Of a stretch of DNA of 64,000 nucleotides, positions 14,218 through 15,399 are shown piece by piece. Positions within the stretch are counted from its first letter, which is position 1. Each line of letters begins with the position of its first letter. The notes under the pieces are model-generated. The model saw nothing but the letters and a program-made list of their open reading frames with translations, made no database searches and had not been told where the DNA came from. The stretch is from assembly GCF_056712565.1 (NCBI RefSeq), contig NZ_CM160072.1. The stretch is one strand, 5' to 3'. The translations under genes were made by a program, and so were the position numbers.

Positions 14218-15399
14218 ATGTTCCGCCGTCTGCTTATCGCAACAATCGTCGGTATTCTTGCGGCCTTTGCCGTTGCCGGGTTTCGTCATGCGATGCTGCT
14301 ACTGGAGTGGCTGTTCCTCAATAATGACTCCGGCAGTCTGGTCAATGCAGCGACAAATCTTTCCCCGTGGCGACGGCTGCTAACCCCGGCGCTCGGCGGA
14401 CTGGCGGCGGGTTTGTTGCTGATGGGCTGGCAGAAATTTACCCAGCAACGCCCTCATGCGCCGACCGATTACATGGAAGCGTTGCAAACCGATGGTCAGT
14501 TTGATTACGCAGCAAGCCTGGTTAAATCGCTTGCCTCTCTACTGGTAGTAACCAGCGGCAGTGCAATTGGTCGCGAAGGTGCGATGATTCTTTTAGCTGC
14601 CCTTGCAGCCTCGTGTTTTGCCCAACGTCTTACGCCACGCCAGGAGTGGAAATTATGGATCGCCTGTGGAGCTGCGGCGGGAATGGCTGCGGCCTATCGC
14701 GCCCCGCTTGCTGGCAGTTTATTTATAGCCGAAGTGCTGTTTGGCACTATGATGTTGGCCTCTCTCGGCCCGGTGATTATTTCCGCCGTCGTGGCGTTGC
14801 TGGTTAGCAATCTTATTAATCATAGCGACGCATTACTCTACAGCGGACCACTGTTGTTAACGTTAATGAACGCCTGTCATCGTGGATTTGTGAGTCTCAA
14901 GCTTGCGCCGCCCTGGCAACTGGCACTGGGCGGGTTGATCGTGGGTCTGCTTTCCCTGTTCACACCTGCAGTGTGGGGCAACGGCTATAGCACCGTACAA
15001 TCCTTTTTAACCGCTCCGCCACTGTTAATGATCATTGCCGGGATCTTCCTCTGTAAACTGTGTGCCGTGCTGGCGAGTAGTGGTTCTGGCGCGCCCGGTG
15101 GTGTCTTTACACCGACGCTATTTATCGGTCTTGCCATTGGCATGTTGTATGGTCGTAGCCTGGGATTATGGTTACCTGATGGCGAAGAAATTACGCTTTT
15201 ACTCGGATTGACAGGGATGGCGACACTGTTGGCGGCGACCACGCACGCGCCGATTATGTCGACGTTGATGATATGTGAAATGACCGGGGAGTATCAGCTA
15301 CTCCCCGGTTTATTGATTGCCTGCGTAATTGCGTCGGTAATTTCGCGGACGTTACACCGTGACTCTATCTACCGCCAGCACACTGCGAAGCATAGCTAA
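14218..15399 (+). CDS. clcB: ClC-family chloride channel / H+-Cl- exchanger ClcB; start codon uncertain (ATG 14218 or GTG 14158); apparently 25 aa shorter than the K-12 protein
   Basis: ClC signatures GSAIGREG and GAPGGVFTP; 393 aa from MFRRLLIAT. An in-frame stop at 14149 prevents extension upstream of 14158. Confidence 0.75.

Follow-up and report, generated by a model that had tools for sequence, protein, structure and literature searches.

The genes clcB and ynfK (bidA in MG1655) of Escherichia coli converge and share DNA at their 3' ends, and this junction was analyzed in the window, a stretch of 64,000 nucleotides from contig NZ_CM160072.1 (RefSeq assembly GCF_056712565.1) that contains the E. 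coli ynfH-dmsD-clcB / ynfK-mlc region. The overlap is real, already annotated and ancient, and clcB and ynfK are two genuine convergent genes sharing the DNA of their C-terminal tails in the most permissive antisense phase. A conserved hairpin written in clcB codons lies shortly past the ynfK stop on the ynfK-sense RNA and is most likely a 3'-end element of ynfK. Because the ynfK transcript runs past its stop to this hairpin, at 15283-15309 within clcB, the functional overlap of the two units is at least 117 bp and not 48 bp. Taken as a whole, we consider it likely that a genuine overlap is combined here with a 3'-end hairpin of ynfK (mlc-ynfK) lying antisense in clcB codons. For the species comparison, a YnfK scan with one genome per species yielded 80 Enterobacteriaceae loci; YnfK length was taken from 82 loci (L001-L082), 13 of them without clcB, and L083 denotes MG1655. 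The features considered, in window coordinates, are the following.

14218..15399, + strand: clcB coding sequence (open reading frame [ORF] list; Pfam Voltage_CLC, E 1e-69; RefSeq in L001, L002 and L083)
15352..16047, - strand: ynfK coding sequence (bidA; 'bioD' in the Prokaryotic Genome Annotation Pipeline [PGAP]), 231 amino acids (aa), a dethiobiotin synthetase paralogue (ORF list; Pfam AAA_26 and CbiA)
15352..15399, both strands: dual-coding overlap of 48 bp with codons in register (sequence, ORF list and species comparison)
15310..15351, - strand: ynfK 3' untranslated region (UTR) spacer, 42 nt between stop and hairpin, antisense to clcB codons (C/G 1.5)
15283..15309, - strand: conserved RNA hairpin in the ynfK sense (scan, fold energy, recoding test, covariation and retention after clcB loss)
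15266..15282, - strand: tail 3' of the hairpin on the ynfK-sense RNA, CAUUUCACAUAUCAUCA (alignment columns 40-56)

The first-pass annotation of the window, made from the sequence alone, had claimed a 48-bp convergent overlap of clcB and ynfK comprising the last 16 codons of each gene, and the overlap was recovered at exactly 15352-15399 from the sequence, the ORFs and RefSeq. The two gene names it had given were also right, with Voltage_CLC in ClcB (the domain ending equivalent to the limit of the ClcA alignment), AAA_26 (E 2e-30) and CbiA in YnfK, and ClcA and BioD as the respective structural relatives. The clcB frame ends ...CAC ACT GCG AAG CAT AGC TAA, its stop occupying 15397-15399 (+), while ynfK on the - strand runs from the ATG at 16047 to the TAA at 15354-15352 and ends ...GAT AGA GTC ACG GTG TAA. 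Within 15352-15399, each gene has 15 sense codons plus a stop, read on both strands in exact codon register, with clcB position 1 facing ynfK position 3. The antisense of the clcB Leu codon TTA (15352-15354) is the ynfK stop, and the antisense of the TTA of ynfK Leu-217 is the clcB stop; each stop sits within the reading frame of the partner, both here and in 63 species. The identical overlap is found in the RefSeq annotation of strain O18, which is 100% identical to the window at this site, of a K-12-like strain and of MG1655 (NC_000913.3; clcB 1665315..1666571, bidA 1666524..1667219; b1592/b1593). The sole difference from K-12 within the overlap is at 15388, where A instead of C changes ClcB Gln to Lys (CAG->AAG) and is synonymous in ynfK (CTG->CTT), illustrating the coupling of position 1 to position 3. 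Regarding nomenclature, MG1655 RefSeq lists ynfK as 'bidA, dethiobiotin synthetase BidA' and PGAP as 'bioD' in other strains; our literature search found no paper explaining the name bidA, and a joint mention of ynfK and clcB only in one table of systematic evolution of ligands by exponential enrichment (SELEX).

The probability that the overlap is an annotation artefact, with clcB or ynfK truly ending earlier, is vanishingly small. Nothing was found in its favor, and the ambiguity is limited to start codons: PGAP starts clcB at the ATG at 14182, 12 codons upstream of the curated K-12 start at 14218, and the longest ORF begins with the GTG at 14158. The stops, by comparison, follow directly from the reading frames, which offer neither gene a different one; both frames are conserved to their stops in 63 species, and the ClcB frame is under purifying selection within the overlap. 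Conservation of the overlap, which the first-pass annotation had left to be checked, is extensive, as the 150 bp around it are kept in 5,410 of 5,426 complete E. coli genomes, nearly all at ≥95% identity, and all 63 species with clcB downstream of ynfK have an overlap, of 27 to 66 bp.

In this antisense phase, stops arise solely from TTA, CTA and TCA codons of the partner, which account for 3.0% of the codons in ynfK and 4.6% of those in clcB; a stretch of 15 or more codons therefore stays open with a probability of 0.63 given the ynfK codons and 0.50 given the clcB codons. Thus, the overlap length alone is not improbable, and the persistence of the arrangement is the non-trivial part. The clcB stop faces a ynfK TTA, CTA or TCA codon in every one of the 63 species, among which the overlap lengths are distributed as follows.

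27 bp: 3 species (L060, L004 and L065), scattered
39 bp: 1 species, Raoultella terrigena
45 bp: 15 species, Salmonella and Citrobacter
48 bp: 33 species, Escherichia, Klebsiella, Kluyvera, Raoultella and Buttiauxella
66 bp: 11 species, Enterobacter and Leclercia

YnfK is 231 aa long, with the same stop position, in 81 of the 82 loci, including the 13 without clcB; in the remaining locus (L068), the 5' end of ynfK is cut by the contig edge. Since the ynfK stop is the same with or without clcB and the clcB stop varies, it is the ynfK end that is fixed and the clcB end that drifts. The position of the ynfK end would be intrinsic to ynfK, given its uniform length and its 11-residue extension past the BioD fold, and the ClcB tail following helix R would read into ynfK until the antisense of a ynfK Leu (TTA/CTA) or Ser (TCA) codon provides a stop. 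Synonymous drift at these ynfK codons may then shift the clcB stop and produce the five overlap lengths.

The overlap encodes two tails and not domain cores, as judged from where the alignments to ClcA and BioD end. ClcB aligns to ClcA structures only up to residue 402 of 418, and YnfK residues 3-220 align to E. coli BioD 2-224 (the whole of BioD; E 5e-65), a full-length P-loop BioD fold, leaving residues 221-231 as the C-terminal extension. Orthologues of the two genes were compared from 60-80 species. Site entropy in the overlap was 1.02, 0.33 and 0.75 bits at clcB positions 3, 2 and 1, and the corresponding values were 1.30, 0.37 and 0.70 bits in the clcB-only region, whereas the ynfK body showed 0.19, 0.03 and 1.11 bits at ynfK positions 1, 2 and 3. 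By these profiles, variability in the overlap tracks clcB codon positions and not the ynfK-body pattern. Moreover, the pairwise difference at ynfK third positions in the tail was 0.276 in genomes with clcB versus 0.591 in the 13 without it, compared to 0.455 versus 0.459 in the ynfK body; this release in the tail only, where clcB is absent, indicates that the ClcB frame constrains the shared DNA. The earlier claim that the overlap constrains both C-termini thus stands for one direction, with the YnfK direction only weakly borne out: the ratio of non-synonymous-like to synonymous-like change was 0.57 in the YnfK tail versus 0.14 in the body. The YnfK tail seems to be intrinsically weakly constrained; it keeps its length and a D-R-(V/I)-x-A end (D-R-h-x-A motif) even without clcB. 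Records of E. coli, Shigella sonnei and Salmonella include rare shortened forms of YnfK (213-227 aa; P0005, P0007, P0008, P0033, P0073 and P0079), so the C-terminal tail is occasionally lost. A large protein search for the YnfK tail in distant orthologues was uninformative, as the best 120 matches were all at least 86% identical. Compared with the annotated convergent pair clcB/bidA of K-12, the locus is identical, with the same 48-bp overlap and nothing different in it; what is new is the 27-66 bp conservation in 63 species with a fixed ynfK stop and a drifting clcB stop, together with a measure of how clcB affects synonymous sites in ynfK. The overlap itself, present in every E. coli annotation and mechanistically ordinary, changes nothing.

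With no intergenic space left between the two genes, the probable 3'-end signal of ynfK sits inside clcB. A perfect palindrome within clcB, at 15282-15310, was picked up on the + strand by a scan for terminator-like sites. On the ynfK-sense RNA, the hairpin reads ACCGGGGAGUA-GCUGA-UACUCCCCGGU, starts 43 nt past the ynfK stop (MG1655 1666481-1666455) and folds at -21.5 kcal/mol (z -4.5), with a stem of 11 bp in E. coli and a conserved core of 9 bp. It is written through the ClcB codons T-G-E-Y-Q-L-L-P-G (T-G-E/Q-Y-x-L-L-P-G across the family), a region that aligns to the ClcA motif TDNYQLILP of the conserved CLC helix-R region, which we take to contain the gating tyrosine of ClcA. The tail CAUUUCACAUAUCAUCA is only weakly U-rich, its sequence being dictated by the ClcB codons L-M-I-C-E-M. 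An Rfam 15 scan of 15100-15600 returned only a chance match (23 bits versus a threshold of 55), and a search within ynfK for a counterpart hairpin of clcB found no comparably conserved one, the best window having a mean of -12.7 kcal/mol (-2.6 to -23.7).

Several lines of evidence bear on whether this structure is maintained as RNA. The hairpin folds in all 64 clcB-containing sequences (-13.7 to -23.5 kcal/mol), and across 60 species no other conserved structure within ±600 nt of the ynfK stop matches its stability (mean -17.6 kcal/mol against a background of -7.15, standard deviation 2.37). When its 13 codons were recoded synonymously according to local codon usage, a median of only 0.7% of trials were as stable as the native sequence, and the difference was significant at the 5% level in 56 of 62 species. 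Stem cells were paired in 93% of cases versus 19-44% with the partners slid, and none of 500 shuffles reached the observed stem pairing or covariation score. The stem pair 19-33 covaries, being C-G in 33 sequences and G-C in 25, states that correspond to ClcB Gln CAG plus Leu CTG and to Glu GAG plus Leu CTC, respectively. In addition, the 27 degenerate codons conserved at the amino acid level among the last 120 clcB codons had a median third-position entropy of 1.41 bits, and the only invariant ones were the rare Pro CCC and Thr ACC of the stem; other conserved clcB Pro codons are mostly CCG or CCA. These comparative patterns show that the hairpin is under selection at the RNA level.

The same data bear on a neutral overlap, in which the palindrome would be kept only for the ClcB residues T-G-E/Q-Y-x-L-L-P-G or for translation codons, with no RNA role. 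Such an account fits the position of the motif in the conserved helix-R region, the post-stem tail that is wholly dictated by ClcB codons and the overlap length expected by chance in this phase. Yet protein-preserving recodings fold much more weakly in those 56 of 62 species, a rare Pro CCC is frozen while other conserved prolines vary, the switch between Glu and Gln is matched by a synonymous switch at Leu, and the stem outlives the deletion or decay of clcB (described below). This explanation is already largely refuted, and we regard it as very unlikely.

Substitutions in the stem further distinguish the two strands. Of the 28 core-stem cells that are not Watson-Crick pairs, 22 are G·U on the ynfK-sense RNA and A·C on the clcB-sense RNA, giving 22 G·U cells in the ynfK sense versus 1 in the clcB sense. 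Transitions that keep pairing in the ynfK sense (Gly GGG->GGA, Glu/Gln xAG->xAA) recur in many lineages, whereas those that would keep it only in the clcB sense (Pro CCC->CCT, Thr ACC->ACT) never occur, and the weakest species fold is -13.7 kcal/mol on the ynfK sense versus -8.0 on the clcB sense. Because the tolerated substitutions preserve pairing on the ynfK sense, the hairpin works in the ynfK transcript, and it is on that strand that selection acts.

These asymmetries have to be weighed against a hairpin that works in both directions, either as a bidirectional, collision-type terminator or as an attenuator ending clcB transcription 87 nt before its stop if translation is uncoupled. In Escherichia, TTTATTGATTG comes after the + strand stem (12 pairs, one G·U), which the scan rated as terminator-like, and the fold energy of the + strand RNA is -24.8 kcal/mol (z -3.7). 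This T-rich stretch, at 15310-15320 (+), consists of the Leu codons TTA TTG and makes the site resemble an intrinsic terminator placed 87 nt ahead of the clcB stop. The operon that precedes clcB, ynfEFGH-dmsD, is induced under anaerobiosis, and both it and ynfK, for which direct activation by FNR is reported (PMC3688515), may be active in these conditions. Moreover, bidirectional terminators whose hairpin lies in the overlapping region have been described for convergent E. coli genes (Ju et al. 2019, via bioRxiv 10.1101/2022.10.23.513370), and with this class the locus shares a convergent pair, overlapping 3' regions and one hairpin palindrome (Ju et al. 2019; Wang et al., bioRxiv 10.1101/2022.10.23.513370). 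Unlike that class as described there, the clcB/ynfK hairpin is conserved on one strand, lies inside one ORF instead of between genes and is associated with Rho-sensitive termination; the termination region of ynfK responds to bicyclomycin, while independence from Rho is reported for the described class. The conservation pattern favors the ynfK sense only, as seen in the G·U counts and in the drop of the clcB-sense fold in some species, and the T-rich tail of the + strand is not conserved outside Escherichia. A two-way hairpin is therefore distinctly improbable.

A palindrome acting as DNA, whether bound by a protein, extruded as a cruciform or serving as a recombination hotspot, is exceedingly improbable. 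The 11-bp inverted repeat is perfect in E. coli, and a published genomic SELEX peak of HusR (YnfL) lies in ynfK, between clcB and dgsA (mlc), at coordinate 1,664,668. A DNA palindrome would, on the other hand, not allow G·T-type asymmetry on one strand only; the loop sequence and two inner pairs vary freely, and no transcription-factor motif is known at the palindrome.

Genomes that lost clcB provide a further view of the hairpin in the ynfK transcript. Among the 13 clcB-less genomes, four (two Trabulsiella, one Lelliottia and a C. amalonaticus-like genome in which seven T follow the stem) keep the CCGGG(G/C)AG...CT(C/G)CCCGG stem 9-28 nt past the ynfK stop, and three others have canonical terminators of stem plus T-tract at the same spot. 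The stem also survives in each of the four genomes where clcB is reduced to a decayed 3' remnant. In the three remnants that are still in register with their closest intact relative (L011, L052 and L059), identity to that relative was 86-91% in the stem arms, 66-83% in the flanks and 0-60% in the loop, and in the fourth (L023) a deletion lies between the ynfK stop and the hairpin with the stem still kept. The hairpin thus appears, on this comparative evidence, to be independent of clcB. Loss of clcB would lift the constraint on the tail, letting a normal T-tract evolve (L017 and L010). As for the surroundings, the whole ynfEFGH-dmsD-clcB block seems absent from L010, L017, L040, L041 and L057, where ynfK instead faces, at a distance of 60-90 nt, another convergent gene (ending ...TTCGTGAATGTTCAGCGC...). 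In L073 (Enterobacter sp. kpr-6; 3697-3850), repeated GC-rich palindromes (…CCCTCTCCCTCAGGGAGAGGG…) that resemble REP-type (repetitive extragenic palindromic) or other intergenic repeat elements stand past ynfK in place of clcB.

How the ynfK transcript ends has been addressed in part by published data. In supplementary file 2 of Adams et al. 2021 (PMC7815308), a region of Rho termination that is classed as primary for ynfK and as antisense to clcB is placed at MG1655 1666514 (-), with a Rho score of 4.2 (p 1.5e-6) and DirectRNA-seq reads of 85 upstream and 11 downstream in untreated cells versus 292 and 159 with bicyclomycin. This position falls between the ynfK stop and the hairpin, 10 nt beyond the former and 33 nt short of the latter. 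Over +1..+200 past the stop, the ynfK-sense RNA has a C/G ratio of ~1.5, being C-rich and untranslated. ynfK is also listed in one transcription unit with mlc in published data. RNA polymerase leaving ynfK would transcribe this C-rich, untranslated antisense-clcB RNA and be stopped largely by Rho; the hairpin would then define the mature 3' end and protect it against 3'-to-5' exonucleases, and may in addition cause pausing or weak intrinsic termination. The biochemical role of the hairpin is inferred.

Several points weigh against this interpretation. The published coordinate is coarse, coming from 800-nt windows, and the positions are stated in PMC7815308 to approximate processed 3' ends. On the ynfK sense, the sequence after the stem, CAUUUCAC, is no proper U-tract (3-4 U in 8 nt); a tract of about 5 or more U in the 8 nt directly 3' of the stem was present only in the clcB-less genomes L017 and L010, and the consensus terminator scan made no call on the - strand. 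Tails of clcB-bearing genomes lack a U-tract because CAUUUCAC must encode ClcB C-E-M. No mapped RNA 3' end at the hairpin base was found in published data: ynfK is poorly expressed aerobically, is absent from the Term-seq tables of PMC7815308 and is listed in its Rho table only, and ynfK, clcB and b1593 are absent from the TERMITe supplements (PMC12207403). The covariation consists of one strongly covarying pair whose two states may reflect 1-2 evolutionary events, and the 64 sequences are phylogenetically related, so that sequence counts overstate independent events. The comparison with clcB-less genomes, in turn, rests on 13 genomes from ~7 lineages.

With respect to known systems, the hairpin of ynfK resembles Rho-dependent terminators whose RNAs are cut back as far as a stem-loop that protects them (Dar & Sorek 2018; Wang et al. 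2019, as cited in PMC7815308) in its bicyclomycin-sensitive read-through, its C-rich untranslated downstream RNA and a stable hairpin shortly past the ynfK stop. Unlike the examples cited there, it lies inside a convergent coding sequence and is co-encoded with a conserved protein motif. It shares with intrinsic terminators a GC-rich stem of 9-11 bp, a short loop and a location near the stop codon, and the clcB-less L017, L010, L040 and L041 have the same or an equivalent stem with a proper T-tract; in clcB-containing genomes, the tail CAUUUCAC falls below the usual U-tract requirement.

The window clcB also differs from that of K-12 outside the overlap. A 75-bp in-frame deletion at 14842/14843 removes 25 residues, the segment being replaced by S, and the lost segment aligns to a hydrophobic ClcA stretch, probably a transmembrane helix, which is presumably helix J. 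ClcB is probably defective in this strain, as predicted from the sequence. The segment is missing in ~135 of ~5,420 E. coli genomes with the locus; O18 shares the deletion and additionally carries a 54-bp in-frame tandem duplication earlier in clcB.

If clcB is co-transcribed, the RNAs of ynfK and clcB share at least 117 nt (15283-15399) of complementarity. It is conceivable, but in our estimation unlikely, that the hairpin is an ancient cis-element linking the convergent units ynfK and ynfEFGH-dmsD/clcB, tuning antisense RNA or polymerase collisions against clcB. Were this so, the hairpin would set how far ynfK transcription invades clcB, and a three-way constraint of protein, antisense RNA structure and termination would act on 27 nt.

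More generally, the locus offers a clean comparative example of convergent genes without intergenic space, in which the transcript-end signal of one gene has been pushed into the codons of its neighbor, freezing a rare synonymous Pro CCC and Thr ACC across the sampled Enterobacteriaceae. Recoding or codon-optimizing clcB would destroy the 3' hairpin of the ynfK (bidA)/mlc operon, and a clean clcB deletion, such as those of Keio-type knockouts, may alter where transcripts of ynfK and mlc end. Synonymous conservation within a gene can thus signal an element that belongs to the opposite strand.

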